Position numbers and translations under genes: made by a program
From: Candidatus Onthoplasma sp.
Lineage (GTDB): Bacteria; Bacillota; Clostridia; Christensenellales; UBA1242
Direction of reading: 5' to 3'
Length of the DNA: 64,000 nucleotides
NCBI GenBank assembly: GCA_965646995.1
Contig: CBFGBH010000002.1
Span: forward strand, 5,977-69,976
Part shown: piece after piece, positions 9,600 through 41,138 of the stretch
Layout: every line of letters starts with the position of its first letter
How positions within the stretch are numbered: position 1 is the stretch's first letter
Notes under the pieces: generated by a model
The model's database searches: none
Told to the model about the DNA's origin: nothing
Seen by the model: the letters and a program-made list of their open reading frames with translations, nothing else

Positions 9600-9965
9600 T
9601 TAATAATTCTGTTTGGTTGGGATGACTCCACGAACACCGCCTCGTGGATTTGGTACATCTCCGTTATATCTTGGAATAAGATGTACATGAACATGCATGA
9701 TAGATTGTCCGTCAGCTTCTCCACAATTCATGCCTATATTGTAGCCATCGGGATGATATTTTTTATCTAGCATTTTCTTAGCTTGGTCTATCAATTCAAA
9801 AATTGCAATTCGTTCTTCTTTAGTGGTCTCAAAAAATGTTTTCACATGTCTTTTAGTCACGAACTCCATGTGTCCTTTGCTCACAGGGTAGCCGTCGAAA
9901 CGACCCTTAGCGAGTTCATTTTCTAATATATAATCATCAATTTTACAGAATAAACAATCTTTCAT
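9600..9965 (-). CDS. HIT family nucleotide hydrolase/transferase
   Basis: Histidine triad 'HVHVHLIP'. N-terminal 'CLFC' zinc-type motif. Confidence 0.85.
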   Translation of the reverse strand: MKDCLFCKIDDYILENELAKGRFDGYPVSKGHMEFVTKRHVKTFFETTKEERIAIFELIDQAKKMLDKKYHPDGYNIGMNCGEADGQSIMHVHVHLIPRYNGDVPNPRGGVRGVIPTKQNY

Positions 9966-9966
9966 T

Positions 9967-10290
9967 TTACACCTCGATATTATCTTTTACAGATATTAAA
10001 TATATTTTATCATCAAACGCACCACGCTTTTCGACTTTCGCTTTTCTAATCTTTTCGAAATCTTCATATGTACATTTTTTAGTTTTTAGTATAGCACGCA
10101 GTACTTCTTCTAAGTCTGCTAATTCTTCTATCTCACCAGACTCAAGATATTCGTTTAATTCTTCTTTTATTTTCTTGTTTAGCTCGTCTAGATATTCACT
10201 ATCATTTAAGATGCGAGTAGTAGGTGTTTGATTGTTTTTCTTGCAAATTTGTGGAATTTTATCTCGAACTAATTTATTGTATATTTTCAT
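9967..10290 (-). CDS. All-alpha NTP pyrophosphohydrolase (MazG / PRA-PH-like house-cleaning family)
   Basis: 'YNKLVRDKIP' N-terminus and acidic helices 'EELNEYLESGEIEELADLEEV'. AAAGGAG RBS. Ends 1 nt before the HIT gene. Confidence 0.7.
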   Translation of the reverse strand: MKIYNKLVRDKIPQICKKNNQTPTTRILNDSEYLDELNKKIKEELNEYLESGEIEELADLEEVLRAILKTKKCTYEDFEKIRKAKVEKRGAFDDKIYLISVKDNIEV

Positions 10291-25370: not shown

Positions 25371-26512
25371 ATAAGGTTATATTAATTAGATTTAATGAGA
25401 TACACTTAAAAGGTGGAAATAAGAAATATTTTACTAAATTACTATTAAATAACATTAAGCATGCTCTAAAAGGTTATGATTGTAAAATAGAGAATATTCA
25501 GAGTAGATTATTAGTAAGGGATTATATTGATGAAGATGAGATAATTTCTGCATTGAAATGTGTATTTGGTATTCATTCGTTATCTTTAGCGGTTGAATTA
25601 GAAAATAATGTCACTACTATTAATGACTATGTAAAAACGCTTGAGATAAATAAAACTTTTAAATGTGAAGTAAATAGAGCAGATAAATCTTTTCCTATTA
25701 AATCAAACGATTTTGCAGCCGATTTAGGAGAGATTATTTTAAAGAACAATAAAAATGCCAAAGTAGATATACATAACCCTGACATAATAGTTCATGTCGA
25801 TATTAGAGAAAATGGAAAAACTTATATTTTTTATAATATAGTATATGCTTATTCTGGGCTTCCACTAGGTGAGAATAGAGATGGTTTATTGTTATTAAGC
25901 GGTGGAATTGATAGCCCAGTAGCTGGTTTTTGTATGGCAAAAAGAGGTTTAAGACAAGATATATTGCATTTTGATAGTTTCCCGTATACTAGTCCGCAAG
26001 CTAAACAGAAAGTGATAGACTTAGCTAAATCAATACAGAAATTTACAGGAAGTAAATATATGTATATCTGTAGTATGACTAAATTGCAGGAAGAATTCCA
26101 TGTGAATTGCAGTACTGAATATGCGATTAATTTATTGCGAAGATCAATGATTAGGGTTGCGAATATCTTATGTCAGAAGTATAAATATAAGACGATAATA
26201 ACAGGCGAGAGTCTAGGACAAGTGGCAAGTCAGACGATAGAAAGTTTGACTACAACTAATGTCGTAGCAAATGTACCAGTATTAAGACCACTAATTAGCT
26301 TTAATAAAGAAGAGATCATTGCTATTGCAAAAGATATTAATACCTATGAAACAAGTATCTTACCATATGAAGATTGTTGCACTGTATTTTTACCACGAAA
26401 TCCAGTAATAAAGCCAGATATAAAGGTTGCCGAAAGAGAAGAATCTAAAATAGACTTAAATGATTTGATAAATGGTGTAATTAAAAACATTGAAGTTATA
26501 GTATTAGAATAA
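25367..26512 (+). CDS. thiI: tRNA uracil 4-sulfurtransferase
   Basis: THUMP-type N-terminal half and PP-loop 'LLLSGGIDSPVA'. Confidence 0.85.
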   Translation: MNKVILIRFNEIHLKGGNKKYFTKLLLNNIKHALKGYDCKIENIQSRLLVRDYIDEDEIISALKCVFGIHSLSLAVELENNVTTINDYVKTLEINKTFKCEVNRADKSFPIKSNDFAADLGEIILKNNKNAKVDIHNPDIIVHVDIRENGKTYIFYNIVYAYSGLPLGENRDGLLLLSGGIDSPVAGFCMAKRGLRQDILHFDSFPYTSPQAKQKVIDLAKSIQKFTGSKYMYICSMTKLQEEFHVNCSTEYAINLLRRSMIRVANILCQKYKYKTIITGESLGQVASQTIESLTTTNVVANVPVLRPLISFNKEEIIAIAKDINTYETSILPYEDCCTVFLPRNPVIKPDIKVAEREESKIDLNDLINGVIKNIEVIVLE

Positions 26513-26595
26513 TTATTAAACACTATATATATGGTGTAATATCAATATAATACACAATTATTAAATCAATTATATGAGACATTTTTAGATTTTTG

Positions 26596-26625
26596 TTGAC
26601 TTTGTTTAGATTTTTAGTGTATAAT
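26596..26625 (+). promoter_or_regulatory. Sigma-A-type promoter for rny
   Basis: TTGACT, 18-nt spacer, TATAAT. Confidence 0.5.
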
Positions 26626-26669
26626 CTAATTGTTACGATAGTATTCGTAATAAAAAGGTAGGGTAATTT

Positions 26670-28274
26670 ATGAACATAGCAAATCTTAGTATGCTATGTG
26701 TGAGTACTCCTGTCGCATGGATTTTATCAATAGTTATGTTAGCAATAGGTATAGGAATAGGTATAGGTGCCGGTGTTGGAGTATACGCTGTTGTTATTAA
26801 TAAAAAATCTAAATCAGCTGGTATAAAGGCGGATAAAATTCTCGAAGAAGCACGCATACAAGCAGAAAAAATCAAGAAAGAACAAGTCGAACAGACAAAT
26901 AAAGAGATTAATCTTTTAAAATCAACATTTGAGCAAGAGAACAAAGAACGCAGAGAAGAGACGAAGCGAAATGAAGAGAGACTTTATTCTCGTGAAGAAC
27001 TTTTAACGAAAAGAGAATCAGCATTAGATAAGAAATTAGAAGACTTAGAAACTGCGAGAGAAAAAGTGCGCAATCAAATCGAAGCACTTAATTCTAAAGA
27101 ATCAGCATTAGATGAACTACAAGAGTCTATTGTAAAAGAGTTAGAAAAAGTCAGTGCAATGTCTAAAGAAGAGGCTAAACAGGTTATCATTGACAGATAT
27201 ACCGAAGAGGCAAAGATAGATGCAATAAAACTAGCTAAAGAAATAGAAGATAAAGCGAAAGAAGAAGCAGACAAAAAAGCAAAGAATATTATTACTCTCG
27301 CTATACAAAAATGTGCTGTTGATAATACTAGTGAAGTTACTACCAGTGTAGTCACTCTGCCTAGTGAAGAGATGAAAGGCAGAATTATCGGACGCGAAGG
27401 AAGAAATATCAGAGCGCTAGAGGCTGCTACTGGTATTGACTTTATAGTAGATGACACTCCAGAAGTGATAACATTGTCTGGATTTGACCCGGTAAGAAGA
27501 GAAGTTGCTCGAATCTCACTAGAAAAATTAATATTAGATGGACGTATTCACCCAGCTAGAATTGAAGAACTAGTACAGAAAGTACAAAGAGATGTCGAGG
27601 ATACTATTAAAGAAGCAGGCGAGAACGCTTGTTTCGATGCAGACATTCACAACATTCATCCGGAAATTGTGAAAGTATTAGGAAGACTAAAATATAGAAC
27701 TAGTTATGGACAGAATGTACTTAACCATTCACTAGAGGTTTCTTATATCGCTGGTATGTTGGCTGCTGAAGTCGGCGCAAACGAAAAAGTAGCTAGGCGA
27801 GCAGGCTTACTACATGATTTAGGTAAAGCTGTAGACCAAGAAGTAGAAGGTACACATGTTTCTATCGGTGTAGACTTAGCTAGAAAATATAAAGAGAGTG
27901 AAGCAGTCATTCATTGTATTGCATCCCATCATAACGATATTGAGCCTAAGACTCTTGAAGCTGTTTTAGTACAAGCGGCAGATGCTATTTCTAGCGCTAG
28001 ACCGGGTGCAAGGCGAGAGTCTATCGAAAATTATATCAAGAGATTGCAAGAATTAGAAGCTATAGCTAATGCCTTTAAAGGTGTCGATAAAACTTATGCT
28101 ATTCAAGCGGGTCGCGAGATTAGAGTTATGGTTAAGCCAGAACAAATCAGTGACGAAGAAGCACAAATTTTAGCTCATGATATCGCTAAAGATATTGAAG
28201 CTAAACTTGAATATCCTGGACACATTAAAGTAAATGTTATTCGAGAGTCTAGATTTACGGATACTGCAAAATAA
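26670..28274 (+). CDS. rny: Ribonuclease Y
   Basis: N-terminal TM helix, coiled coil, KH '[15 protein letters not shown]', HD 'LLHDLGK'. Confidence 0.9.
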
Positions 28275-28386
28275 AAAAGACTAGTTAGTTAGTCCATTTT
28301 GAAACTAGCAGAATAATAAAGGAAACATAGACAAAAACAGCCTATGTTTTCTTTTTGCTCTTAACTCTCTCTTAACTGCAAAAAAA

Positions 28387-28687
28387 GCGAATACTTCTGC
28401 CGTTGTCATAGGTTGTCATAAGAATAACAACCTTAAAAGGTATAAGACACTCGCATTGACCTTGACAACAAAGAATATTCGCTTATACTAGAAAATAGAG
28501 AGAAGAAAACAAAAAGCAAAAGAGCGGTTTGCGTTACGCTCCGCCAGCAACCGCTCTTTTGGCAACAAAATTAAGTTTATTTAGTTTGTTAGGCGTGTGC
28601 TTGTCTGCTGGAGCGAAGCGACAGCACTTGTATAAACAAGCACACGCCTAAATGCCAAAGTTAAAAACTTAATCATTAATTGTTGCT
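28387..28687 (+). ncRNA. Candidate structured RNA / palindrome-rich noncoding segment (family unknown)
   Basis: Three long hairpins: 28387-28481 (7+4+7 bp outer stem with an inner GGTTGT/ACAACC hairpin), 28517-28560 (12-bp perfect stem) and 28561-28687 (rod with a 14-bp perfect core AGGCGTGTGCTTGT/ACAAGCACACGCCT). Locally GC-rich. Confidence 0.3.
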
Positions 28688-28732
28688 TTTATTTTTTAAT
28701 ATTATTATACTATTAATGTAAAGGTGGTATCT

Positions 28733-29176
28733 ATGAAAGAAATAATTGCAGAAAGAGATAAAAGTTTTTTCTTTCTAGTAACTGGTGTAGGATTTATCAG
28801 TATGGTGGCAAGTATTATTGCTTTAATTCTTATTCAAAATTACATATGGTTTTATATTTTTGGAATATCTATGATGAGCTTAATTACACTCGTTGGGGTA
28901 ATTGGTTTATTTTTCCCCAAATGGGTCATTATAAGAAAATCAAACACTATCATTATTTACAATGGATTTCGAAGTTTTAAAAAGATAACATTAAACTTAA
29001 CAGATATTGTTGATGTGAAAGTTCAAGAATTACCACAAGAAAGTAAAGTTAAACATAATGGTAATATAATTTTAACAGTAAAGAGTGAGAGTTCCTCAAC
29101 AAAAAACATTGTTGTTATCAATGTAAAAAGCACTTTAAATGTTGTGGAAAAACTTAACTCATTAATTCAAAAATAA
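28733..29176 (+). CDS. Hypothetical small membrane protein (two N-terminal TM helices plus a beta-rich C-terminal domain)
   Basis: AAAGGTGG RBS before the ATG at 28733. The topology resembles bacterial PH-like (YdbS/T-type) proteins, but I recognised no motif. Confidence 0.5.
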   Translation: MKEIIAERDKSFFFLVTGVGFISMVASIIALILIQNYIWFYIFGISMMSLITLVGVIGLFFPKWVIIRKSNTIIIYNGFRSFKKITLNLTDIVDVKVQELPQESKVKHNGNIILTVKSESSSTKNIVVINVKSTLNVVEKLNSLIQK

Positions 29177-29230
29177 AGTTGAACCTTAAAATCTATTATG
29201 ATTCGATTAAGTTTTAAAGTTGGGTTGATA

Positions 29231-29265
29231 AAAAAACGAACTAAAATTAAGTAGTTCGTTTTTTT
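29231..29265. terminator. Bidirectional rho-independent terminator
   Basis: AACGAACTA/TAGTTCGTT stem flanked by A7 and T7 runs. Confidence 0.8.
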
Positions 29266-29311
29266 GCTAGTTTCAAAATTTACAGCCCTTGGCTAGTCTT
29301 TTTTTTCGTAA

Positions 29312-29815
29312 TTATCCTAATAAATTGTTTATAAATGTCATAATTCTTGATGGCTTGCGTTTGTTTTCAATTTGTCTTTGTGCTTCTTCTTGTTCTTCTT
29401 TTGTACGATTGTAAATTAGAATTGGCTCATTAGTAATTTTGATATAGTTTTCATGTGTTTCATCTTGAAAATAATATTTTACATCAATGTGATTAATAAT
29501 TAAATCTAAATACATCATTCCAGTAAATTTTTTACAAAATTTAGTTAATTGACAGCTGTCTGTTGCTTCACTGCCAAAAAGCTGGATATATGCGGATATG
29601 GCATTTGATAGATCTCTATCATCCTTTAATTCTTGATTAGGATGTACATTAGTTACCGAAATATAATAATAAGCATGTACATCATCTTCTTTTTGTAAAC
29701 CTCTTGTCATAGTTCTAGTCAATAGTCCTAGCGAAACAGATTGAGAATATTCGGCACTCCTAGTCATTTTCTCAAATCTATGTATATTATTTAAAATATA
29801 ATCTTTTTTAATCAT
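29312..29815 (-). CDS. Hypothetical protein (no recognisable motif)
   Basis: I prefer the ATG at 29815 (AGGGGG RBS 5 nt upstream) over the track start at 29848. Confidence 0.5.
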   Translation of the reverse strand: MIKKDYILNNIHRFEKMTRSAEYSQSVSLGLLTRTMTRGLQKEDDVHAYYYISVTNVHPNQELKDDRDLSNAISAYIQLFGSEATDSCQLTKFCKKFTGMMYLDLIINHIDVKYYFQDETHENYIKITNEPILIYNRTKEEQEEAQRQIENKRKPSRIMTFINNLLG

Positions 29816-29902
29816 ATAAACCCCCTTAGTGTTTGCGTAATATATCATATTTATCTTTGATTGTCAATACTTAATTTTAAAATTTTGTTGAAAAGTTGAC
29901 TA

Positions 29903-29930
29903 TTGACAATTATCAAATCCATGATATAAT
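29903..29930 (+). promoter_or_regulatory. Near-consensus sigma-A promoter directly abutting the purA/purZ-like ATG
   Basis: TTGACA, 16-nt spacer, TGATATAAT (extended -10). The ATG at 29937 lies 7 nt after the -10 with no RBS, which implies a leaderless transcript. Confidence 0.55.
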
Positions 29931-29936
29931 ATCATT

Positions 29937-31261
29937 ATGAAATATAGTGGGAAAGTACATGTAGTATACGATGGCATGTGGGGTTCGTGTGGTAAAGGTA
30001 AGATTTGCGGTATGCTGGCGCGAGACACAAAATTAAATATTAAAGTATCTGTTAATAATAATATGCCTAACGCTGGACATACATTTTATTTTGATGATGG
30101 TAGAAAGATTGTAACACATCAGTTACCTATAGGTATAGTTAATCCTGATATTAAATATTTAGTAATTGGCGAGTCGGCAGCAATTAATGTTGATAAGCTA
30201 ATAGAAGAATTAGATAAATATAAAGATTTAATTGGAATATAAAGATTTAATTGGGAACAGACCTATATATATTTGTAATACTGCATGTATAGTTACCGAA
30301 GAGCATATTAAGAGAGAAAAAGCAAGACTTAAGACGGGTAGTACTTTTACTGGCAGTGGAGAGGCGCTTATTGCTAAAATGAGAAGAGAAGGAAACATTG
30401 CAGAAAATGATGAAAGATTACAAGAATTACAAAGACAAGGTATAATTAAAATAGTAAAATCTAAAATTTTCTTTCCGAGTCTATATAATGGAGTTAATGG
30501 TTTTAATGGGGATGAAAATATATTAGTCGAATGCTCGCAAGGGAGACGCATTGAGTCTGAATGGCACTAGTTATCCTTATACAACGTCTAGAGATTGTAC
30601 TCCTGCCCAAGCAATTAAAGATATACACGCTACTGATTACAGCGGAAACATTATTAAATATTGCGTTATCCGACCATATCCAATACGCATAAATAATAGA
30701 CCAAAAAATGACAAAGACGACTATATGTATACGGGAGATTTTTTAGGAGCGAAAGAGATAGATTGGGAGACTATATCTGAACGCAGTGGAGTGCCACTAG
30801 ATGAAATATTAGAAAATGAGCAGTCAACTACCACCCATCAGACTAGAAGAGTGGCAGAGTTTAGTGCTAGACAGTTCAGCGAGATGTTACTTGATACTAA
30901 TCCCGATAAAATAATTATCAATTTCGGTCAATATAATGATGAGGCTCTTAGTGAACTTAATGAAGCAAAAGTAATTGATATAATAAACAATTATAATAAC
31001 GGAGATACTTCATCATATAATCTTGAAATATTGTCTGCTGTAGAAAATTTATATGCTTATATTGGTTTATTTGAGTTGGATTTTCCAATGTCTGAAGGTA
31101 AAATTAGATTAATAGGGACAGGTAGGCTAGAGAGTGAGATAATTAATGTTTCGCATTTACCAGATTTTGAGTTGCCGTACGAATATCAAATACATTGCTT
31201 TAAGCCAAATGCTCTAGACTATGCGATATATGATGAGGCAGACATTAATATTAAATTTTAA
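29937..31261 (+). pseudogene. Adenylosuccinate synthetase-like (PurZ-like/divergent PurA) gene split into three frames
   Basis: Track ORFs 29937-30242, 30232-30570 and 30551-31261 are collinear with PurA. Motifs: 'WGSCGKGK' P-loop, 'NMPNAGHT', 'GSTFTGSGEA', 'ECSQG..LSLNGTSYPYTTSRDCTP', 'TTTHQTRRV'. Frames are broken at 30237 and about 30550. Confidence 0.75.
30218..30255 (+). repeat. 19-bp tandem duplication inside the purA/purZ-like gene
   Basis: ATATAAAGATTTAATTGGA followed by ATATAAAGATTTAATTGGG (18/19 identical). Removing one copy restores the frame ('DKYKDLIGNRPIYICN'). Confidence 0.9.
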
Positions 31262-31290
31262 GAATGAGAGTATCTCATTCTTATTTTATT
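31261..31290 (+). terminator. Rho-independent terminator after the purA/purZ-like gene
   Basis: AGAATGAGA/TCTCATTCT 9-bp stem followed by TATTTTATT. Confidence 0.7.
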
Positions 31291-31291
31291 A

Positions 31292-31324
31292 ATAAAAAAA
31301 TTAACTATAAACATCATAGTTAAT
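31292..31324 (-). terminator. Rho-independent terminator of tRNA-Trp
   Basis: ATTAACTAT/ATAGTTAAT stem followed, on the minus strand, by a T7 run. Confidence 0.7.
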
Positions 31325-31338
31325 TAATAGTAAAATAA

Positions 31339-31413
31339 TGGCAGGGGAGACGCGATTCGAACACGCAACCAATGGTTTTGGAGACCACTACTCTACCATT
31401 GAGCCACTCCCCT
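31339..31413 (-). tRNA. tRNA-Trp (anticodon CCA)
   Basis: Acceptor AGGGGAG/CTCCCCT, anticodon loop CTCCAAA, CCA encoded. Confidence 0.9.
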
Positions 31414-31534
31414 TTAATGTCTAGTATACTCTATACGAAATATTATGTCAATAAATTTGTTGAAATAAATTGTAATAAAGGATATAATAGTTTGAATTTT
31501 ATAGATTTTATGATAGTATTATCATGAGGTAGAT

Positions 31535-32320
31535 ATGATAATTCCAATAATCGAAGAGTGCGATGGGAATGAAGAATACACGTCGGCAAGGCAGTTTGCT
31601 GAACATTTCCCAGATATGTTTAAAAATGTGAATGAAGTGAAACAAAAAGGAATACATAAATGTTACATAATTTTTTATGATTATCCAGAAAATAATAAAT
31701 TTTTATCTAAATTAAAAGTGGTATATAAATTTCATGGAGGATCGGGATTAAGCAATGTATTTGAATATAAGAATTCACTAATAGCTATATCTCCAGTTGG
31801 TGCACCTGTCGCAGCTGGATTGATGGAAGAATTGTCAGTTTTTGGTATTGATGAATTTATTGCACTTGGTTCGGCTGGCTGCTTGGATGAAAAAATATCT
31901 GAAAAATTTGTATTAGTCACTAAAGCTATTCGAGATGAAGGGACCTCGTATCATTATTTAAAGCCAAGTACATATGTTAACACTAGTAAAGATTTGAATC
32001 AAAAATTGATAGAATATTTAAAATCTAATAATATTGATTTCGTAAAATCGATTACATGGACTAACGATGCATTTTATCGTGAAACTAAACAAAAAATTGC
32101 TATGGCAAAAACGCTAGGAGCGGTAGCTGTAGAAATGGAATGTGCTGCGTGGTGTGCTGTAGCGAAATATCGTAAACTAAAATTTTCGCAAATTTTATAT
32201 TTCAGTGATGTGGTAAAACAAGAAGCATGGCAAAGATTGACTTGGAAAAAAGACATGTCGGAAGATATAAAAGATAAAATTATACTAATAGTAAAAGATA
32301 TGATAGATAATAGGGTGTAA
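31535..32320 (+). CDS. Nucleoside phosphorylase family protein (PNP_UDP_1 superfamily)
   Basis: 'GSAGCL', 'RDEGTSYHY' and 'VEMECAA' blocks. GAGG RBS. Confidence 0.7.
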   Translation: MIIPIIEECDGNEEYTSARQFAEHFPDMFKNVNEVKQKGIHKCYIIFYDYPENNKFLSKLKVVYKFHGGSGLSNVFEYKNSLIAISPVGAPVAAGLMEELSVFGIDEFIALGSAGCLDEKISEKFVLVTKAIRDEGTSYHYLKPSTYVNTSKDLNQKLIEYLKSNNIDFVKSITWTNDAFYRETKQKIAMAKTLGAVAVEMECAAWCAVAKYRKLKFSQILYFSDVVKQEAWQRLTWKKDMSEDIKDKIILIVKDMIDNRV

Positions 32321-32322
32321 TT

Positions 32323-32763
32323 ATGAAAAAAGTGACAATATACACTGATGGTGCATGTAGCGGTAATCCTGGAGCAGGGGGCTGGGGAGCGGTACTTTTT
32401 TATAAAGATAGTATGAAAGAAATTAGTGGTTTTGAACCAAATACAACAAACAATCAAATGGAATTAACGGCTGCAATTAAAGCTATAGATAAATTAAAAG
32501 AACCTTGCGAGATAGATTTATATAGCGATAGTGCATATCTTATCAATGCTTTTAATCAGGACTGGATTACAAAATGGCAGATGAATGGTTTTAGAACAGC
32601 AAATAAAAAGCCAATTCAAAATATTGAATTATGGAATACATTAATAGAATTTAATAATATGCACAAGATTAATTGGATAAAAGTGAAAGGGCATGCCGAC
32701 AATAAATTTAACAATCGTTGTGATGAGTTAGCAACGGGCGAGATAGCAAAAAATGCTAAGTAA
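32323..32763 (+). CDS. rnhA: Ribonuclease HI
   Basis: 'IYTDGACSGNPGAGGWG', 'TNNQMELTA' and 'KGHADNKFNNRCDELA'. Confidence 0.9.
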   Translation: MKKVTIYTDGACSGNPGAGGWGAVLFYKDSMKEISGFEPNTTNNQMELTAAIKAIDKLKEPCEIDLYSDSAYLINAFNQDWITKWQMNGFRTANKKPIQNIELWNTLIEFNNMHKINWIKVKGHADNKFNNRCDELATGEIAKNAK

Positions 32764-32777
32764 ATTAGCATTTTTTT
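32754..32777. terminator. Terminator between convergent rnhA and the ABC permease gene
   Basis: TGCTAA/TTAGCA stem across the rnhA stop, followed by a T7 run. Confidence 0.7.
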
Positions 32778-32793
32778 ACTATAAATTTATATT

Positions 32794-34527
32794 TTATAAT
32801 TCTTTTTTCTTGAATATTTGAGTTGATATTACATTCAAAACTAAAACAATTAAAACTATTATGCAAACCGTTAAAACGATATTTGTTCCTGCGAATACTT
32901 TTGCTCCTAATATCACATTAAAGAAATCGTTGGCTGGAGCATAAATTGAGCTTCCGAACAAAGCATATAACGAGATGTGTGAGAAAGGATAGAATGAAAG
33001 CCAACTATTAATTCCGCCTGCAAACATTGGTAATAATGTATTAACGAGATATATCACTAATACTATAGTAACTGCAAATAGGTCTGATTTTAATAATGTC
33101 GCTAACAACATTGCAATGGAAACATAGACCAAAATTTCAAGTAATAAACTTAAAATATATATTAAAATCATACCGATAGGGTGTATAACTATCGCTATAG
33201 AACTATTGAAGATGGTCAAAATATTCAGTGAAGATACTCCATAGAAAGCAGCACCAACACATAATGATATAATGCCTGCGAATAATGTCATTATGGTAGA
33301 CATGAACATTATGGCAAATAATTTACCCATGAAAACATTATTTCTAGATACTGGGCGAATAGCAAAATATCTCATTGAGCCTTCTTTGATTTCTCCAGCG
33401 ATAGAATGACATGAGGTCATCACTGCATAAGCAATAATTATGAAAGAGAATAATCGAAGAATAAAGTAAGTATAGTCATATGTGTTAATAGAGTGATTAG
33501 ATGTGATTCCTATTGTTAGTGGATTAGCATAATCAGCAGTAGTTTTGTCATTGTCAAATAAATAAGAATATAATATTAATTTAGTATTAGAATTATATTC
33601 AGATTCATTCTTTAGTCCTAATAAGTTTAATTGTTCTTTAGTATTGACGAAAGAGAAAGCATTGCTCAATAATTCTAGATGTATTAGTGTAGAGTATGCA
33701 TCACAGATATCTACATATTCTTGGCATAAATTAGCCATTTTTGAGATGTTTTCAGATTTAATAGAATGGTCAGCTTCTTTACAGAAATTATAAAATTTAT
33801 CTATTTCTTCCATTTTCTTATTAAGTCTAGATGTTAGGGTAGAGTATTTTGTTTTTTCTTCTTTTGTTGTATAGGTTCTTATTAGATTATCTGCTAATTT
33901 AGTATAAATTAAATTATCTATAGCATTAAAAAGAGGTTCTTTATATTTTTTATTAAATTCATCACATATATTAGCGATTTCATTTGTGTCTGTCTTGAGA
34001 AGGGTAAGTGCTGATAAATATACTGAATCTAATGTTTTTTGGTTATCAGTCGAAGTCAATATTGGGTATGCACCATTTTTGATGAGTTCTAAGCCGTGGT
34101 TGATTGTATCATACAAACTGGTTAGAGCGGTGGTAACGGCATTTCGTCTATTGACTTTTGTGGTTTCATTTTTATCGGATTCAGCCATGTACGCATAGGC
34201 TAAATAATTCTTAAACGCATCATCAAATGCTGATACTTGAATGTTAATATATTCTTTATATGATTTATCATTGATTTCGTAATTATCTATATTTCGTATG
34301 GCTAGTGTTATAGAATCATCAGCTTTGGTCTTAATACCACCCATAAAATATGTATAATTATCTAATGCAGATTTATTAGCAAAATCAATTTGATTAGTAG
34401 CGGGGGTAACTGATGGTTTATATATAAATACGCCTAAAACCAATATGACTGCCAGTAAAATAGCCAGTACATAAATACCTGGTTTAGAGACCATCTTTTT
34501 AATTTCTGCTTTAAAAACTTTGTACAT
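32794..34527 (-). CDS. ABC-2 type transporter permease with a large extracytoplasmic domain
   Basis: N-terminal TM helix, about 330-aa soluble region, then five or six C-terminal TM helices. Downstream of the ABC ATPase gene. Confidence 0.65.
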   Translation of the reverse strand: MYKVFKAEIKKMVSKPGIYVLAILLAVILVLGVFIYKPSVTPATNQIDFANKSALDNYTYFMGGIKTKADDSITLAIRNIDNYEINDKSYKEYINIQVSAFDDAFKNYLAYAYMAESDKNETTKVNRRNAVTTALTSLYDTINHGLELIKNGAYPILTSTDNQKTLDSVYLSALTLLKTDTNEIANICDEFNKKYKEPLFNAIDNLIYTKLADNLIRTYTTKEEKTKYSTLTSRLNKKMEEIDKFYNFCKEADHSIKSENISKMANLCQEYVDICDAYSTLIHLELLSNAFSFVNTKEQLNLLGLKNESEYNSNTKLILYSYLFDNDKTTADYANPLTIGITSNHSINTYDYTYFILRLFSFIIIAYAVMTSCHSIAGEIKEGSMRYFAIRPVSRNNVFMGKLFAIMFMSTIMTLFAGIISLCVGAAFYGVSSLNILTIFNSSIAIVIHPIGMILIYILSLLLEILVYVSIAMLLATLLKSDLFAVTIVLVIYLVNTLLPMFAGGINSWLSFYPFSHISLYALFGSSIYAPANDFFNVILGAKVFAGTNIVLTVCIIVLIVLVLNVISTQIFKKKEL

Positions 34528-34543
34528 ATATTTACTCCGAAAA

Positions 34544-35476
34544 TTAAATTATACTTGACGAGGGTCGGTCGCCATTTAACATCTCAAAATATAATTCTTC
34601 AAGTGATTTTTGAATTTTCTTAATATTATAAATTTTCACTTTCTTATAAGTGAGATAAGATATAATTGTAGCGATATTGCTTTCACGAAGTGGAAGAATA
34701 ATAGAAGTGCCTATTACTTTACTATTGATTTTGTATTTTTTTCTCAGTAGTTGAGCTGCGTAGTTAGGGTAGTTGCAGTGGAATTGCACTCGTTGTTGTT
34801 CGGCCAAAGTGTTAGATATCTGCTTCATTGTTTTATGTTCTATAATTCGACCATTACTTATTAATCCTATCACATCACATAGTTGTTCTAATTCTGCTAG
34901 ATTATGGCTTGAGATAATAATTGCCATCTTTTCTTTTTCGGCTAGAATTCGTAATATATTTCTTATTTCAACGATACCATTTGGGTCTAATCCATTTGTT
35001 GGTTCGTCTAGAATTAATAGTTTGGGTTTGTTTAAAAGAGCTTGAGCTATACCTAATCTTTGTTTCATGCCGAGCGAGTAGGTAGACACTTTGTCTTTAA
35101 TGCGGTTTTCCATACCTACTAATTTGACAATTTTATTGATTCTGGCGCTTGCTTTTTTGCCATAAAAATCTGCAAAAAGTTTTAAGTTATTCAACCCTGA
35201 TAGATAAGGGTAGAGCTGCGGCATCTCAATTACAGCACCTACATTTGCAATAGCATATCTAAAATTTCTTTCTATATTGTATCCGCATATCCTTATTTCT
35301 CCACTTGTAATTGGAGTAAGGCCTGTAACCATTCTAATAGTTGTGGATTTTCCTGCTCCGTTTGGGCCTACGAATCCAAAAATTTGTCCTTCGAAAACGG
35401 AAAAAGTGACATTGTTTACCACTTTTTTATTACCATAAACTTTAGTTAAATTCTTAATATTTAGAATGGGTAACAT
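34544..35476 (-). CDS. ABC transporter ATP-binding protein
   Basis: Walker A 'GPNGAGKST', signature 'YSLGMKQRLGIA', Walker B 'LLILDEPTNGLD'. Confidence 0.9.
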   Translation of the reverse strand: MLPILNIKNLTKVYGNKKVVNNVTFSVFEGQIFGFVGPNGAGKSTTIRMVTGLTPITSGEIRICGYNIERNFRYAIANVGAVIEMPQLYPYLSGLNNLKLFADFYGKKASARINKIVKLVGMENRIKDKVSTYSLGMKQRLGIAQALLNKPKLLILDEPTNGLDPNGIVEIRNILRILAEKEKMAIIISSHNLAELEQLCDVIGLISNGRIIEHKTMKQISNTLAEQQRVQFHCNYPNYAAQLLRKKYKINSKVIGTSIILPLRESNIATIISYLTYKKVKIYNIKKIQKSLEELYFEMLNGDRPSSSII

Positions 35477-35484
35477 ATTGCTCC

Positions 35485-36708
35485 TTATATTCTATTTTTT
35501 ATTTTTATTAAAAATAAATATGTAAATAATAAATCTACTAACAGTGAAACGCTTAGTAATACAACTGCATACAAATTGGCGTAATTATTAACAGCAAACA
35601 TAGATGAAATGGTATTTTTACCTATGCAAATATTTATAATGAATAAAACTAATAAAATTATTATTTCAGAACAAGCGACAATAATACTGCGTTTTTTTAA
35701 GTTGATTTTGTGTGGCAACTTAACTAATTTAAGTCTAATTTTTTGATAATAAAAAGCGTAAATAGAAGGGTAGAATATCATTACAATAAGACCTAGGGTT
35801 AAAGATATATAATATAGTGTAGTCTTTCCTGTGAAATTAGTTACTATTCCATTGATTATCAGCATTAATAAAATGTATGCACTTGTTGACAAAATCTTAA
35901 ATAAAATATTTTTAGCGGTAATTTTGGCTTGAATATAATTTTGGTCTATTCGTAAGTCTTTATAATCTACATGTTTTATTGAATCGTATTCTAGAGAAGA
36001 AGGCTGTAGATTATGATTCTTTTTTAGCTTTGTTTCATTTGAATCGTAAATTGCTTTTAATTGGTCTTTATACTCGCTAGATAAAATGTTATTTGAATGT
36101 TCTGTAAATTTAGCTACATTTTCATTGCAGGCAAAAGTTTCATCTGTTTTGGTTTTCTCATCTTTTAATAATTCGGTATTAGTTTTGTTTATTTCTACTT
36201 CAGTTATAGTATCTATAGATTTGTTTGCAAAGACTTCATTACTAGGCAAAACGCTTTCTTTTTGAGCAATTGTTGAGTCGTCTTTTTCTTGTGATAACAT
36301 ATCAAAAATAGAATAGTTATCATTTTCGATTGATTTTTTGCTTTGTTTAGGCTGCATCATTGTTTCCACATGTGCACTAATATTGTTTGTATCGTTTGAC
36401 ATCATGTCAGTATTATCATTCATTATATTTTGTATTAGAGTCTCAAAAGAAGGGAGTGTAGCTACTTGCTGTCTTCCGTTTGAGGTTAATTTATAATAAT
36501 GGCGTTTGCCTCCAATCTCGCTATCTTGCCAATAAGATGTGATAAAACGAGATTTTTCTAATTTTTTCAATATAGTATATAGGGTAGGCTGTTTAATTAT
36601 AATTTTACCTTTAGAACGGCTTTCTAACGACTTGATTAAGTCTAGTCCGTATTTGTCTTCTGAGCTTAATTCTAGTAGAATTAGTGGAATTAAATCTACA
36701 GTTTTCAT
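35485..36708 (-). CDS. PadR-family transcriptional regulator fused to a C-terminal membrane domain
   Basis: wHTH 'YGLDLIKSLE...QPTLYTILKKLEKSRFITSYW...KRHYYKLT', then four TM helices. Confidence 0.75.
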   Translation of the reverse strand: MKTVDLIPLILLELSSEDKYGLDLIKSLESRSKGKIIIKQPTLYTILKKLEKSRFITSYWQDSEIGGKRHYYKLTSNGRQQVATLPSFETLIQNIMNDNTDMMSNDTNNISAHVETMMQPKQSKKSIENDNYSIFDMLSQEKDDSTIAQKESVLPSNEVFANKSIDTITEVEINKTNTELLKDEKTKTDETFACNENVAKFTEHSNNILSSEYKDQLKAIYDSNETKLKKNHNLQPSSLEYDSIKHVDYKDLRIDQNYIQAKITAKNILFKILSTSAYILLMLIINGIVTNFTGKTTLYYISLTLGLIVMIFYPSIYAFYYQKIRLKLVKLPHKINLKKRSIIVACSEIIILLVLFIINICIGKNTISSMFAVNNYANLYAVVLLSVSLLVDLLFTYLFLIKIKNRI

Positions 36709-36802
36709 ATGTCCCCTTTAAATAAATATATAATAAATTATATATTAAAATTGTTTATTAGTCAAATAAAAAAAGACAATTTTCATATTGTCTTGATATT
36801 TA

Positions 36803-37390
36803 TTAGAATTTATTTCTTATTAAGCCTACAACTTTGCCTAAAATCTCTAAATGGTCTGTAATAATTGGTCGCATATATGAGTTTTCTGGCTGTAATCTAA
36901 AATAGCCATTTTCTTTATAAAATCGTTTAACGGTGGCTTCATTATCTATTAAACAAGCCACAATTTCTCCATTATTGGCTATAGATTGCTTTGATATTAT
37001 TACATAATCATCGTTGTATATGCCGATGTTAATCATACTATCACCTTTTACCTTTAAGATAAACATGTTAGTACCGGAAAATAAATTGTCAGAAACCATA
37101 ATTTTGTCAGAAATATTTTCTTCGGCGAGTATAGGAGTACCGGCTGCGATGGTGCCAACAATTGGAAGCGATATGTTATTGGCATATGATTTATCAGATA
37201 ATTCTATCGCTCGATTTTTAAATTCGTTTCTATTAATTTTTCCTAATTTTTCTAGTTTCTTTAGATGATATGCTACGGTGGAGGTCGATGCGATGTTTAG
37301 TTTGTCGCAGAGTTCTCGCACAGTAGGGGGGTAGCCCTTATTTTCGATATTAGAAACTATCATATCATAAGTTTCTTGTGTCTTGTCCAT
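36803..37390 (-). CDS. lexA: LexA repressor
   Basis: 'GYPPTVRELCDKL..STSTVAYHLKKLE' HTH and S24 peptidase 'VKGDSM'. Confidence 0.9.
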   Translation of the reverse strand: MDKTQETYDMIVSNIENKGYPPTVRELCDKLNIASTSTVAYHLKKLEKLGKINRNEFKNRAIELSDKSYANNISLPIVGTIAAGTPILAEENISDKIMVSDNLFSGTNMFILKVKGDSMINIGIYNDDYVIISKQSIANNGEIVACLIDNEATVKRFYKENGYFRLQPENSYMRPIITDHLEILGKVVGLIRNKF

Positions 37391-37407
37391 ATAATTCTCC
37401 TAAATCA

Positions 37408-37436
37408 AATATAGCACATTTAAAAGAACTTGTCAA
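37408..37436 (-). promoter_or_regulatory. lexA promoter
   Basis: Minus strand reads TTGACA, 17-nt spacer, TATATT. Confidence 0.6.
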
Positions 37437-37447
37437 ACATTTGTTCG
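37434..37447 (-). promoter_or_regulatory. SOS (Cheo) box
   Basis: Minus strand reads CGAACAAATGTTTG. This has one mismatch to GAAC-N4-GTTC and overlaps the -35 of the lexA promoter. Confidence 0.65.
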
Positions 37448-37514
37448 ATAAATTGTTATTTCATTAAAAACTAATTAATAAACTACATATTGGGTGTTAT
37501 ATGTGAATAATACA

Positions 37515-38561
37515 CTATATTTTATCAATTTTTACTTTGCCGGCAACAGATTTTCTAATATCATCACTAATAGCAGCATAATGTTTTTTAGTAGTGTTAA
37601 CATCTTTATGTCCTAGAACTTCTGCGACTATATATATATCATTTGTGGCGTTATAAAGATTTGTACCATATGTTGAGCGTAATTTATGTGGAGTAATATG
37701 TTTCAATGGAGTGGCTATTTTAGCATATTTTTTCACTAAATATTGTATAGTTCTGACCATCATACGTTTACCTTGACTCGATATAAACAAAGCTCGCTCT
37801 TCTTTTGGTAAATTCAAAGTATCTCGATATCTTAAGTAGTCTTTAAGTGTATCTGCCGTCTCTTCGCCGAAATATAATATTACCTGATTGCCACCTTTCC
37901 TAGTTACTCTAAATGAATTAAGATTAAAATTAATATCATCAATATTTAATCCGACGCATTCACTTACACGTATACCAGTTGTTAAAAATAATGACAATAT
38001 CGCATTATCACGAACTTTAAATTTTTCATTATATTTTTTTTGATGTTCGCCAAACCCGGACAATGTATTGCAAGAATACATGAGTTCAGTGGTCTCTTGT
38101 GGTTCTAGTCTGATTATTGGTTTTTCGTGTAATTTGGGACTAGCTACTTTACTTGCCACATTGGCTCTCAACATATCTTTATTAAAAAAGTATTTAAAGA
38201 AAGCACGAAGAGTAGATAGTTTTCTTAATTTGCCACGCTCACCATTACTGAATATCTCTCCTGAGTCCTTATCATAATAAGAAAGATATGACATGAATCG
38301 CTCAATCAGTCTGGAATCAATCTTATCAATATCGCTAAGACTGATGGTTTTTAATTCTCTTCCCATAAAAATTTCTTCATACGTTATTAGATAATTAAAA
38401 AATGTTTTAAGGTCAATAGCGTAATTAAGTCGTGTAAGAGGAGTAGTAGTGTCCTGAATGCCGATGAAAAATATACTACAAAATGCCGGTAATTCGCCGA
38501 GTATTTCATTTAATTTCTTCATGTTATTACGATTTCTATCTAAATAGTAATTATTACTCAT
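37515..38561 (-). CDS. Tyrosine recombinase (Xer/phage-integrase family; long N-terminal domain, XerS-like layout)
   Basis: 'TGIRVSE' (Arg I), 'VTRKGG', 'HKLRSTYGT' (HxxR) and 'LGHKDVNTTKKHY' (catalytic Tyr). Confidence 0.85.
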   Translation of the reverse strand: MSNNYYLDRNRNNMKKLNEILGELPAFCSIFFIGIQDTTTPLTRLNYAIDLKTFFNYLITYEEIFMGRELKTISLSDIDKIDSRLIERFMSYLSYYDKDSGEIFSNGERGKLRKLSTLRAFFKYFFNKDMLRANVASKVASPKLHEKPIIRLEPQETTELMYSCNTLSGFGEHQKKYNEKFKVRDNAILSLFLTTGIRVSECVGLNIDDINFNLNSFRVTRKGGNQVILYFGEETADTLKDYLRYRDTLNLPKEERALFISSQGKRMMVRTIQYLVKKYAKIATPLKHITPHKLRSTYGTNLYNATNDIYIVAEVLGHKDVNTTKKHYAAISDDIRKSVAGKVKIDKI

Positions 38562-38573
38562 ACAAATATTATA

Positions 38574-38591
38574 CTATATCTTTGCGTAAAA
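38574..38591 (+). repeat. Arm copy 1 of the TATCTTTGCGTAAAA motif
   Basis: CTATATCTTTGCGTAAAA lies 12 nt upstream of the recombinase start codon. After a 9-nt gap comes TTTTAC, the first 6 nt of the complementary arm. Confidence 0.85.
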
Positions 38592-38681
38592 CACAAATAT
38601 TTTTACTATAAACGAAAAAATATTACATGTTACTTGACAAAATCTTTTTTTCATTAGTAATTATAATAGAGGTGAAAAATA

Positions 38682-39239
38682 TGGTACAAGATTTAGGAAA
38701 GTGGGCATTTAACGATATAACTGACGAAGATTGGTACTCAATAGCTGAAGTTTTAGAGAATGAATATGTAACATGAACGGAGTTAAGAAGTGCGTATGAA
38801 AAGTAACTGAGAAAGAGAATACCTATGTGATATATGGAGAGCAAGTTAAAGGCGTTAAGAATGCAAGCGATGAGGGATATGGTTTACTTGCTATTGTTAA
38901 AGTTATAAACAATTATGATTTTTCAGTGAGTACAAATCCAGATAAAGAAGAGCTTTTTATAGACACTTTACTTAAATATTTAATTAAAAATTGTAAACTA
39001 GTTGATTACGATGAAGAATTTACTAGTTATCAATATGATAAGATTAATACTAAAGCGAAGAAAGCTGCAGAGGAATCAGTTAAAAAATTACGTATAATTG
39101 AAAATGAAAAATCTAACAAAGTAAAAGAATCTTTATTAAGGAAAACATACGAATTTTGACCGAAGAGTATAAAAAACTAAATGAAAAAGTTTACAAATTA
39201 TATGAAGAGGTTCATTCTGAAGAAAATAATACTCTTTAA
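38682..39239 (+). pseudogene. Fragmented ORF of unknown function (multiple frame breaks)
   Basis: GAGGTG RBS plus ATG opens a 31-codon ORF. Coding-like sequence continues in other frames (track ORF 38827-39159, then 'LTEEYKKLNEKVYKLYEEVHSEENNTL'). Confidence 0.45.
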
Positions 39240-39304
39240 TTCATGTATATTTAAAACAATATGAATTAATAGATGCTGTAGTTAGAAATTATATCAAAAA
39301 TTTG

Positions 39305-39333
39305 TTGACAAAAAATATGTTATTTTATATAAT
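39305..39333 (+). promoter_or_regulatory. Consensus sigma-A promoter of the serS leader
   Basis: TTGACA, 17-nt spacer, TATAAT. Confidence 0.7.
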
Positions 39334-39339
39334 AAAAAT

Positions 39340-39585
39340 AGTTTAATATATCGTTGATTTGGACTAGTACATTTCTAAAGTATCAGAGAGTTTGCGGTTG
39401 GTGAAAGCAAATTATGGAAGTTATGTACGTCTACCCAAGGAGATACCTGTGAAAATAGGGCTGATTGCATAGCAAAATTTGCAATTAATGAGTGGAATGA
39501 TTTAATTCATTCAAAATAGAGTGGCACAGTGGTAAATATCACCTCTATATTAGTTTTTGTAACTATATATGAGGTGTTTTTTATT
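39340..39585 (+). promoter_or_regulatory. T-box riboswitch leader (Ser)
   Basis: Stem I 'AGAGAG..GGTGAAAGC'. T-box-like 'AAATAGAGTGGCACAGTGG', whose UGGC would pair with the GCCA end of tRNA-Ser. Terminator CACCTCTATAT/ATATATGAGGTG plus T6. The possible UCU specifier is tentative. Confidence 0.75.
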
Positions 39586-39627
39586 TTAGATACCTTGTAT
39601 ATAGTAAATATATTATAAGGAGACAAT

Positions 39628-40920
39628 ATGATAGATATTAGTTTTTTAAGAAATAATCCAGAGATAGTCAAGGAAAATATTAAAAAGAAATTCCAAGACC
39701 ATAAGCTTCATTTAGTAGACGAAGTTATTGTTATGGATGTAAAAGTGCGAGCCTTAAAACAAGAAGGCGATGATTTGCGTGCTAAGCGTAATACTTTGTC
39801 TGGACAAATCGGAATATTAATGAAGAACAAACAAATAGATGAAGCAAATAAAATTAAAGCCGAAGTAGTTAAGAATAATGAACGTATTACGGCAATAGAA
39901 GCCGATGTAGCTGAGTTAGATTCAAAAATTAAGCAGGCTATGATGGCTATACCTAATATAATAGCTGACAATGTTCCTATTGGCGAAGATGATAGTAAGA
40001 ATGTTCAAAGACTTACTGTGGGACAAGCGAAAAAATCAGATTTTGACATACCATATCATGCTGATATATTAGAATCATTAATGGGATTAGATTTAGATAG
40101 TGCTAGACGAACTAGTGGTAATGGTTTTTATTATCTAACTGGGGATGTAGCAAGATTACATTCTGCGATTTTATCATATTCACGCGATTTCATGATAGAT
40201 AGAGGGTTTACTTATTGTATACCACCATTTATGATACATGGAGATGTTGTTAATGGTGTCATGAGCTTTGAAGAGATGGATAATATGATGTATAAAATTG
40301 AAGGCGAGGACTTATATCTTATAGGTACAAGTGAACATTCTATGATTGGACGATTTAAAGGTACAATTTTGAAAGAATCAGACCTTCCATTATGTTTGAC
40401 TTCATATTCGCCATGCTTTAGAAAAGAAGTTGGTGCTCATGGACTCGAGGAAAGAGGTATCTATAGAGTGCATCAGTTCGAAAAGCAAGAGATGATAGTC
40501 ATCTGTAAACCAGAAGATTCTATGAAATGGTATGATAAAATGTGGCAGATATCTTCAGATTTCTTTAAATCATTAGATATACCACACGAAGTAATGGAAT
40601 GCTGTAGCGGAGATTTGGCAGACCTTAAGGTAAAATCTTGTGATATTAATGCTTGGAGTCCTAGACAAAATAAATATTTTGGAGAGCTGGGTTCTTGCTC
40701 AAATTTAACAGACGCGCAGGCTCGTAGATTAGGTATTAGATATAAGACTGAGAAGGGTACAGTACTAGCGCATACATTGAATAATACTGTAGTGGCACCT
40801 CCTAGAATGCTGATTGCATTTCTTGAAAATAATTTGAATGAAGATGGTAGCGTAAATATTCCTATTGCTTTAAGGCCATATATGGGCGGAAAAGAGAAAA
40901 TAGAGAAGAAAAAGGTGTAA
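39628..40920 (+). CDS. serS: Seryl-tRNA synthetase
   Basis: N-terminal coiled-coil arm and class II motifs 'FRKEVGAHG' and 'GELGSCSN'. GGAG RBS. Confidence 0.9.
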   Translation: MIDISFLRNNPEIVKENIKKKFQDHKLHLVDEVIVMDVKVRALKQEGDDLRAKRNTLSGQIGILMKNKQIDEANKIKAEVVKNNERITAIEADVAELDSKIKQAMMAIPNIIADNVPIGEDDSKNVQRLTVGQAKKSDFDIPYHADILESLMGLDLDSARRTSGNGFYYLTGDVARLHSAILSYSRDFMIDRGFTYCIPPFMIHGDVVNGVMSFEEMDNMMYKIEGEDLYLIGTSEHSMIGRFKGTILKESDLPLCLTSYSPCFRKEVGAHGLEERGIYRVHQFEKQEMIVICKPEDSMKWYDKMWQISSDFFKSLDIPHEVMECCSGDLADLKVKSCDINAWSPRQNKYFGELGSCSNLTDAQARRLGIRYKTEKGTVLAHTLNNTVVAPPRMLIAFLENNLNEDGSVNIPIALRPYMGGKEKIEKKKV

Positions 40921-40991
40921 TCATCTTTTTCTTTTTATATTGACAAAGTGGGCTTCATATGCTGTATTACCAATGATATTAGGAGAAATTT

Positions 40992-41138
40992 ATGACTAAA
41001 GAACAACATAAGCTTTTGTATAAAACTGACATTAATAATATTACTGCAAAAGATGTAAAAAATTTTATGCCGTATATTAAAAAGAGAATACTTAAAATTA
41101 AAACTCATAAAAAATTTTCGACGATAACATTAGTATAA
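40992..41138 (+). CDS. Possible 48-aa basic small protein
   Basis: AGGAG RBS 7 nt upstream of the ATG. Ends 10 nt before a strong terminator. Too short for the ORF track. Confidence 0.3.
   Translation: MTKEQHKLLYKTDINNITAKDVKNFMPYIKKRILKIKTHKKFSTITLV

Follow-up and report, generated by a model that had tools for sequence, protein, structure and literature searches.

A disrupted gene of Candidatus Onthoplasma sp. probably belongs to a bacteria-encoded clade of PurZ-type synthetases

What gene once stood at positions 29937-31261 of the DNA stretch analysed here, and did it come from a phage? The stretch (64,000 nucleotides of contig CBFGBH010000002.1 from Candidatus Onthoplasma sp., hereafter the window) carries at this place an interrupted gene of the adenylosuccinate synthetase (PurA) superfamily with residues typical of PurZ. 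Phage PurZ makes the precursor of the DNA base 2-aminoadenine (Z). We find it likely that the region is a recently inactivated chromosomal gene of a bacteria-encoded PurZ-type clade, with Ser in place of Asp13 and an ATP-type site. The genes of this clade belong to bacteria rather than to phages, and no description of it was found in the literature searched. A large, vertically inherited bacterial clade shifts where the origin of the Z pathway is sought. As its members carry PurZ diagnostic residues and are often joined to a purine deoxynucleoside triphosphate (dNTP) pyrophosphatase, it also raises the question whether cells make 2-aminoadenine nucleotides. Since the window copy is dead, its value is that of a pointer to this family; it also illustrates the dispensability and repeated loss of the gene.

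The gene is split into three consecutive plus-strand open reading frames (ORFs) of 101, 112 and 236 codons (29937-30242, 30232-30570 and 30551-31261). A preliminary description of this DNA had reported them as collinear with PurA and had listed the motifs GSCGKGK, NMPNAGHT, GSTFTGSGEA and SYPYTTSRDCTP; the collinearity was confirmed and all four motifs were found. Repair of the two frame breaks in silico, by deleting one copy of a duplicated 19-mer and one G (19 + 1 bases), gave a single ORF of 434 amino acids (aa) with no further stop, collinear end to end with intact 433-aa orthologues (81% identity). The parts of the pseudogene and its lesions, compared with the orthologous loci L001 and L012, are as follows.

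29937-30242, plus strand: N-terminal part of the pseudogene (101 codons), with the GSCGKGK P-loop and NMPNAGHT; its TAA stop is made by the duplication
30217-30254, plus strand: lesion 1, a perfect 19-bp tandem duplication (2x AATATAAAGATTTAATTGG) that shifts the frame by +1
30255-30540, plus strand: middle fragment, within ORF 30232-30570, with the GSTFTGSG nucleotide-phosphate loop and ECSQG
30541-30543, plus strand: lesion 2, GGG against GG in L001 and L012, a 1-base insertion that causes the second frameshift
30544-31261, plus strand: C-terminal fragment, within ORF 30551-31261

The two copies of AATATAAAGATTTAATTGG lie at 30217-30235 and 30236-30254, and alignment with the window shows a single copy of the 19-mer in both intact orthologues. 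Lesion 2 lies in the context CAAGG(G)AGA within CAAGGGAG, where deletion of any base of 30539-30544 restores the frame. The C-terminal fragment carries YPYTTSRDCTP, RPYPIRINN, QSTTTHQTRR, the ATP-type INFGQY and a clade-specific C-terminal extension. Both frameshifts are absent from L001 and L012, which bears out the pseudogene status proposed earlier; unlike a functional PurZ gene, the window copy has no intact reading frame. Programmed frameshifting was ruled out as an explanation by the presence of two unrelated lesions and by the contiguous orthologues.

Comparison of the repaired coding sequence with L001 or L012 gave a nonsynonymous divergence (dN) of ~0.12 and a synonymous divergence (dS) of >2, which is saturated, with omega (dN/dS) of 0.03-0.05. 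Such values mean purifying selection over nearly all of the divergence, and hence inactivation of the window gene was recent. The enzyme is not made in the window genome, where the gene is dispensable and under loss.

It might be argued that the gene is intact and that both lesions are assembly or sequencing artefacts. The contig is probably metagenome-assembled, lesion 2 is one base within a G-run, a mis-joined overlap can yield a short exact tandem duplication, and the rest of the coding sequence is unblemished (dN/dS ~0.05). However, there would have to be two independent artefacts no more than 330 bp apart in one gene, whereas the neighbouring genes shared with L001 (20/20) are all full length. 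Moreover, copies in other genomes are broken by nonsense point mutations, and these cannot be put down to assembly, so that decay of the purZ-like gene is real and recurrent. We therefore regard an artefact as quite improbable in the window as well.

The repaired protein was then compared with sequence and structure libraries. Pfam PF00709 (Adenylsucc_synt) covers only its N-terminal third (E = 1.4e-23). Phage PurZ was the top match in PHROGs, PDB, NCBIfam and Foldseek. In PHROGs, the match to PHROG 1211 ('2-aminooxy adenylosuccinate synthetase') is full length (E = 5e-54). In PDB, the best sequence matches were phiVC8 PurZ (6fm1, E = 3.4e-34) and S-2L PurZ (7odx, E = 2.7e-33), followed by the weaker archaeal PurA (6e-13), PurZ0 (7e-12) and bacterial or eukaryotic PurA (1e-9 to 1e-15). 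The phiVC8 alignment shares the NMPNAGHT and YPY(C/T)TSRDCTPA blocks with the repaired protein, in agreement with the earlier attribution of the TSRDCTP block to phage PurZ. The suggested profile hidden Markov model search placed the NCBIfam PurZ model NF038379 on top, with 183.4 bits against a curated cut-off of 300 that was passed by Vibrio phage VP5 PurZ (396) and Archimedes PurZ0 (325). Two PurA models scored lower still, at 102 bits for NF003295 (cut-off 368) and 84 bits for TIGR00184 (cut-off 396). An AlphaFold2 model, for which 17 family sequences were used (mean predicted local distance difference test 85.4, predicted template modelling score 0.88), matched the PurZ structures 7ODX and 6FKO/6TNH first in Foldseek, then 5K7X, 7VF6 and ordinary PurA. 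PurZ and PurA were the only strong structural matches, so that the fold is that of adenylosuccinate synthetase. Judged from these comparisons, the resemblance to PurZ goes far beyond chance; identity to the phage enzymes is only ~30-32%.

The substrate pocket was examined by mapping positions of S-2L PurZ (PMC8342488) on an alignment of 159 sequences. In PurZ, T273 and Q308 are unique substrate contacts and Phe306 stacks on ATP, replacing the GTP-specifying (N/T)KxD (PMC8342488); Ser is found at the PurA Asp13 position in 100% of phage PurZ (PMC12884076). The equivalents are listed below.

S-2L S23: Ser in the window protein and the bacterial family; Asp in PurA
S-2L S131: Ser in the window protein and the bacterial family; Thr in PurA
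S-2L T273: Ser or Thr in the bacterial family; Gly in PurA
S-2L F306: Phe in the window protein and the bacterial family; Lys or Met in PurA

The replacement of Asp13 by Ser, which the preliminary description had named as a phage PurZ feature, is indeed one, and it is present both in the GSCGKGK of the window and in 75/75 aligned intact bacterial members. Among the 77 intact members mapped, S23, S131 and F306 are invariant, and T273, which lies in QSTTTH, varies between Ser (as in the window protein) and Thr (as in most members). The Q308 equivalent is Gln, in INFGQY in the window protein and NF(A/G)QY in the family sequences inspected. The window protein thus has PurZ residues at five of the five discriminating pocket positions. 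It shares with phage PurZ also the GST loop, not GTT, the YPYxTSRDCTP block and the PurZ-type insertion after V241 (R-V/I loop). The absence of PurZ-specific pocket residues had been put forward as one observation that would speak against a PurZ affinity; these residues are present. Pseudogene drift was excluded as the cause of the substitutions, which are invariant across the intact family. Two proteins of the window type, P0054 and P0055, carry GDCGKGK and PANVDHT, that is, Asp at the PurA catalytic position within an otherwise Ser-type clade; these two may have reverted or taken on a different function.

Phylogenetic placement was obtained from neighbour-joining trees (up to 165 sequences, ~327 well-occupied columns, 200 bootstraps). 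These contained 78 bacterial family members, 72 IMG/VR viral PurZ, the reference PurZ of VP5, DMU1 and S-2L, PurZ0 (Archimedes, Wayne), Bacillus phage BpsS-140, E. coli PurA and archaeal PurA (one sequence or seven, with the same topology in either case). All PurZ-like sequences separated from archaeal PurA with 99.5-100% bootstrap (100% against the seven archaeal PurA together with E. coli PurA), and PurZ grouped with the bacterial family to the exclusion of PurZ0 with 92-95%. The bacterial family and six gut-phage contigs formed a clade (86-88%), to which classic phage PurZ was sister (75-83%); the bacterial clade was not nested in classic PurZ. The window gene grouped with L001 and L012 (100%) within a sub-clade of 24 members, called here the 440-aa sub-clade (100%). 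Groupings of bacterial with archaeal PurA and of PurZ0 with archaeal PurA had 0% support. The window protein is therefore not found inside ordinary Firmicute PurA, but within the PurZ group, and the PurZ-like reading first drawn from the letters is borne out by sequence and structure matches, pocket residues and tree alike.

Two other related enzymes can be set beside the window protein. PurZ0 of Gordonia phage Archimedes (7VF6), which uses GTP, also has Ser at the Asp13 position and belongs to the PurZ group with respect to archaeal PurA, but it is a weak sequence match, has Met (GTP-type pocket) where the window protein has Phe, and branches outside the clade of PurZ and the bacterial family. 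The short archaeal PurA of Pyrococcus horikoshii (5K7X, NF003295) is similar in its compact architecture (template modelling score ~0.65-0.83); however, it is ~25% identical, has Asp13, a GTT loop, a GTP-type site and Gly in place of T273, and is separated with 100% bootstrap.

The alternative that these proteins are the divergent housekeeping PurA of reduced gut Firmicutes, converting inosine monophosphate (IMP) to adenylosuccinate, with an Asp-to-Ser change of no effect on substrate and with the window copy lost through adenine salvage, is the main rival to PurZ chemistry. It draws on the general behaviour of the gene, which is chromosomal, syntenic and monocistronic, has a strong promoter and has been strongly constrained by purifying selection, and on a shorter sister sub-clade that scores about equally on both models (P0117: 242 bits for archaeal-type PurA, 214 for PurZ). 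The Asp of P0054 and P0055, which belong to the long clade, would also fit it. In addition, tblastn with E. coli PurA detected no canonical purA in the window or in ~1.4 Mb of carrier-genome flanks, but these flanks cover 10 kb per genome, so that this absence says little. Against such a role, the PurZ-specific substrate contacts are conserved family-wide, with the ATP-type NF(A/G)QY in place of the (N/T)KxD of housekeeping PurA (TIGR00184, NF003295), and every PurA equivalog model scores far under its cut-off. It would also be odd for a sole, essential PurA to be disrupted independently in six cases, to occur as two paralogues in one metagenome-assembled genome (MAG) and to be fused to NUDIX domains. 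We hold this alternative to be unlikely.

Whether the gene came with a phage can be judged from its surroundings. Upstream lies rny (26670-28274), and the other neighbours are the following.

28724-29176, plus strand: predicted membrane ORF of 150 aa, inside a ~1-kb insertion that is missing from L001, and outside the conserved locus
29312-29848, minus strand: divergent ORF of 178 aa, conserved at the same position in L001 with 54% identity
31339-31413, minus strand: tRNA-Trp(cca), a conserved neighbour, with flanks 31262-31534
31535-32320, plus strand: homologue of PNP_UDP_1-family nucleoside phosphorylases/nucleosidases, below all NCBIfam cut-offs

The L001 locus (sister genome GCA_965647245.1, 205-kb contig), in which the purZ-like gene is intact, has the order sigF operon, spoVA, iscS-like gene, thiI, rny, small divergent ORF, purZ-like gene, tRNA-Trp, PNP_UDP_1, RNase HI (rnhA), ABC transporter, PadR, LexA, integrase-family gene and serS. 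The genes that it shares with the window are 54-95% identical, and the PNP_UDP_1 homologue lies downstream of the purZ-like gene in the window, in L001 and in L012 alike. Around the purZ-like gene, G+C is 0.30-0.32, the window average. These observations do not support the accessory island or decayed integrated element that had been proposed in the preliminary description: synteny with L001 holds gene for gene, composition is ordinary and no phage genes flank the locus. Distant family members, which lie among housekeeping genes on bacterial contigs of up to 539 kb, also oppose it. Of the two orphan ORFs reported beside the gene, only the 150-aa ORF sits in the lineage-specific insertion; the 178-aa ORF is conserved with the locus. 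The latter has its own promoter (11/12, 29867-29839), has two homologues only among 5.8 billion proteins and no family-library match, and is a lineage-restricted orphan.

A decayed Z-genome phage or other mobile element, integrated beside tRNA-Trp, could still be invoked from the adjoining tRNA gene, a Phage_integrase-family gene ~6 kb away (37515-38561) and local rearrangements (the 1-kb insertion and a tRNA inversion), as well as from ORF6N or TnpV neighbours at some loci of the short sub-clade. Six IMG/VR phage contigs with GSCGKG-type PurZ even nest in the bacterial clade, which means that exchange between phages and bacteria did occur. But L001, where the gene is intact, keeps the entire neighbourhood and with it the integrase-family gene next to lexA, base composition is unremarkable, and the 64 kb contain neither phage structural or replication genes nor homologues of DatZ, MazZ or DpoZ. 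The window gene thus lacks both the phage genome and the Z-cluster partners (DatZ, MazZ/DUF550, usually DpoZ) that accompany phage PurZ, and the lack of adjacent datZ, mazZ and dpoZ noted earlier now extends to the whole window. Among 2.9 million viral contigs the 440-aa sub-clade was not found, with a best viral identity of 37%, and 50,697 phage records reach ~31% only. We consider a phage remnant highly improbable.

Further searches of the window were negative as well. Neither gut-phage PurZ neighbours and NUDIX proteins nor the PurZ-adjacent cluster of Acinetobacter phage DMU1 (its DNA polymerase plus four unannotated ORFs) had a tblastn match; a regular-expression search detected no NUDIX box, and PADLOC gave no match for the PurZ-like protein or its neighbours. 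With E. coli PurB as tblastn query over the window and the fetched loci, purB was near the gene at one bacterial locus only (L072), so that linkage is absent for purB as for purA.

How widespread is the family to which the chromosomal PurZ-type gene of the window belongs? A word-index search returned 455 relatives, with intact 433-aa proteins at 81% identity and many of 436-450 aa at 50-58%. The family occurs in at least 85 species of uncultured gut Clostridia or Bacilli. When GTDB species were scanned, each through one genome, 100 loci were confirmed; the 80 retained all come from uncultured members of these two gut groups. Carriers include Christensenellaceae, 'Eubacteriales', Candidatus Onthoplasma, bins labelled 'Tenericutes' and Clostridium sp. 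CAG:575. Members outside the window lineage adjoin ribosomal-protein operons, RuvX/IreB/MutS2, or the spore germination protease and ribosomal protein S20. Copies in five other species representatives are disrupted independently, by three nonsense mutations and two frameshifts:

L013, 9214-10548: disrupted copy, CAG to TAG
L058, 9524-11059: disrupted copy, TAA nonsense
L089, 9983-11161: disrupted copy, TAA nonsense
L028, 10001-11306: disrupted copy, frameshift
L084, 9091-10217: disrupted copy, frameshift

Five independently damaged copies elsewhere imply that the gene is dispensable and recurrently lost. Full-text literature searches turned up no account of a PurZ-type clade on bacterial chromosomes, although the Science papers of 2021 and the PurZ0 paper of 2023 may mention one. 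In a survey of February 2026 the PurZ group consists of phage sequences and four archaeal ones (PMC12884076); according to a paper of March 2026, natural dZ-DNA has been reported exclusively in phages (PMC13128860), and PurZ records with bacterial names have been taken as mis-annotated viral sequences (PMC8342488).

Gut-type phage contigs with GSCGKG-type PurZ (L099-L104 and L150; IMG/VR, 36-69 kb) carry the gene in replication modules with exonuclease, SSB, RusA, helicase, ThyA/ThyX and deoxynucleoside monophosphate kinase; among the flanking genes, neither DatZ nor MazZ could be recognised with Pfam and PHROGs. One MAG, CALWEJ01, has two paralogous genes of the 440-aa type on different contigs (L018 and L024). 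In another lineage (L002 8635-13712; L013 7872-9149), a sodium:dicarboxylate symporter lies directly upstream and an ABC-F protein and Ham1/ITPase downstream, with NT5C and a nucleoside hydrolase nearby, a context flavoured by nucleotide salvage.

A possible hint as to function comes from the short (~360 aa) sister sub-clade. There, a NUDIX domain is fused N-terminally at 16 loci (among them L003 10001-11539, L038-L045, L048, L050, L052, L076, L078, L085), and a separate NUDIX gene lies immediately upstream on the same strand at ~22 loci and immediately downstream at 5. In the fused domain, which is MTH1-like (E = 2.4e-35 to human MTH1), the equivalents of Asn33 and Asp119-Asp120 are conserved; the stand-alone NUDIX is of another type. 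NUDIX domains of relatives match the PADLOC candidate family PDC-S07. Within three genes of the short-clade module, ORF6N/Rha-like genes were seen at 11 loci (e.g. L039 11371-12315) and TnpV genes at 3 (e.g. L065 11210-11563), hinting that this module is somewhat mobile. Neighbour clustering disclosed no conserved partner for the 440-aa sub-clade, whose contexts are variable; an adjacent NUDIX is found at L018 only.

In Z-genome phages, MazZ supplies the monophosphate from the triphosphate. By analogy with phage PurZ, intact members of the bacterial clade may join aspartate to C6 of a guanine deoxynucleotide in an ATP-dependent reaction. Deoxyguanosine monophosphate (dGMP) would yield N6-succino-2-amino-deoxyadenosine monophosphate (N6-succino-2-amino-dAMP) as in PurZ, and host adenylosuccinate lyase would complete the step to 2-amino-dAMP. 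In the short sub-clade, the fused or adjacent NUDIX hydrolase might provide the monophosphate, in a role like that of MazZ, and the order triphosphate, monophosphate, succino-adduct would be the same as in the MazZ-PurZ module. The hydrolase differs from MazZ in being a NUDIX protein (MTH1-like when fused) and not of MazG/DUF550 fold, there is no DatZ, and the window sub-clade is without a partner. That intact members perform PurZ chemistry on dGMP is the best-supported guess, and we put it forward tentatively. It is more doubtful that uninfected gut Firmicutes possess a cellular route to 2-aminoadenine deoxynucleotides through a chromosomal PurZ-type synthetase, often with a NUDIX purine-dNTP pyrophosphatase, the deoxynucleotide of Z (dZ) serving for partial substitution in their own DNA or for anti-phage or antimetabolite use, or the clade serving as a reservoir for phage PurZ.

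Several points weigh against assigning the window gene to a PurZ-type clade with the activity of the phage enzymes. The substrate would have to be read across from phage enzymes that are ~30% identical, and the best profile score stays under the cut-off of its model. The tree is distance-based and its outgroup modest. The bacterial family has Ile at V241 in 77/77 members, Thr or Val at C204 and an invariant Cys after the Ser (GSCGKGK, where classic PurZ has GSTGKG); the window sub-clade in addition has ~70-100 extra C-terminal residues and, in the bacterial family, the gene resides in conserved chromosomal loci, unlike that of phages. In PurZ, V241 lies against C2' of the deoxyribose (PMC8342488), and the bulkier Ile would be compatible with a deoxynucleotide substrate. 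The window sub-clade has no conserved NUDIX, DatZ, MazZ, DpoZ or PurB partner, which leaves a cellular use of 2-aminoadenine nucleotides without explanation. Finally, both lesions were read from one assembled, probably metagenome-derived, contig.

Signals for expression of the purZ-like gene are kept in the window, and two of them frame the pseudogene closely.

29903-29930, plus strand: promoter for the purZ-like gene, sigma-70 type (TTGACA, 16 nt, TG-extended TATAAT; 12/12 consensus)
31259-31283, plus strand: intrinsic terminator hairpin that overlaps the stop codon and is followed by a T-run

The -10 hexamer lies 6-7 nt ahead of the ATG, and a Shine-Dalgarno sequence is lacking; with the promoter ending 6 nt from the start codon, this suggests that the mRNA would be leaderless. 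The arrangement is kept at L001 (about 9960-10003) and L012. The tRNA was the sole Rfam match in 26000-33000; no riboswitch was detected ahead of the gene.

Two local rearrangements distinguish the window from its orthologues. First, tRNA-Trp(cca) with its own promoter is inverted with respect to L001 (11412-11486) and L012 (1608-1682), where it is co-oriented with the purZ-like gene. Second, the ~1-kb insertion (28275-29311), which contains a promoter-like site at 28462-28489, separates rny from the 178-aa ORF; L001 has a 26-bp gap only at this point. On a larger scale, a strand switch and the maximum of cumulative GC skew (~41 kb) adjoin the conserved pair of lexA and an integrase-family, possibly Xer-like, gene (window ~32800-41000), and both would be consistent with a replication-terminus region, as had been suspected in the preliminary description.

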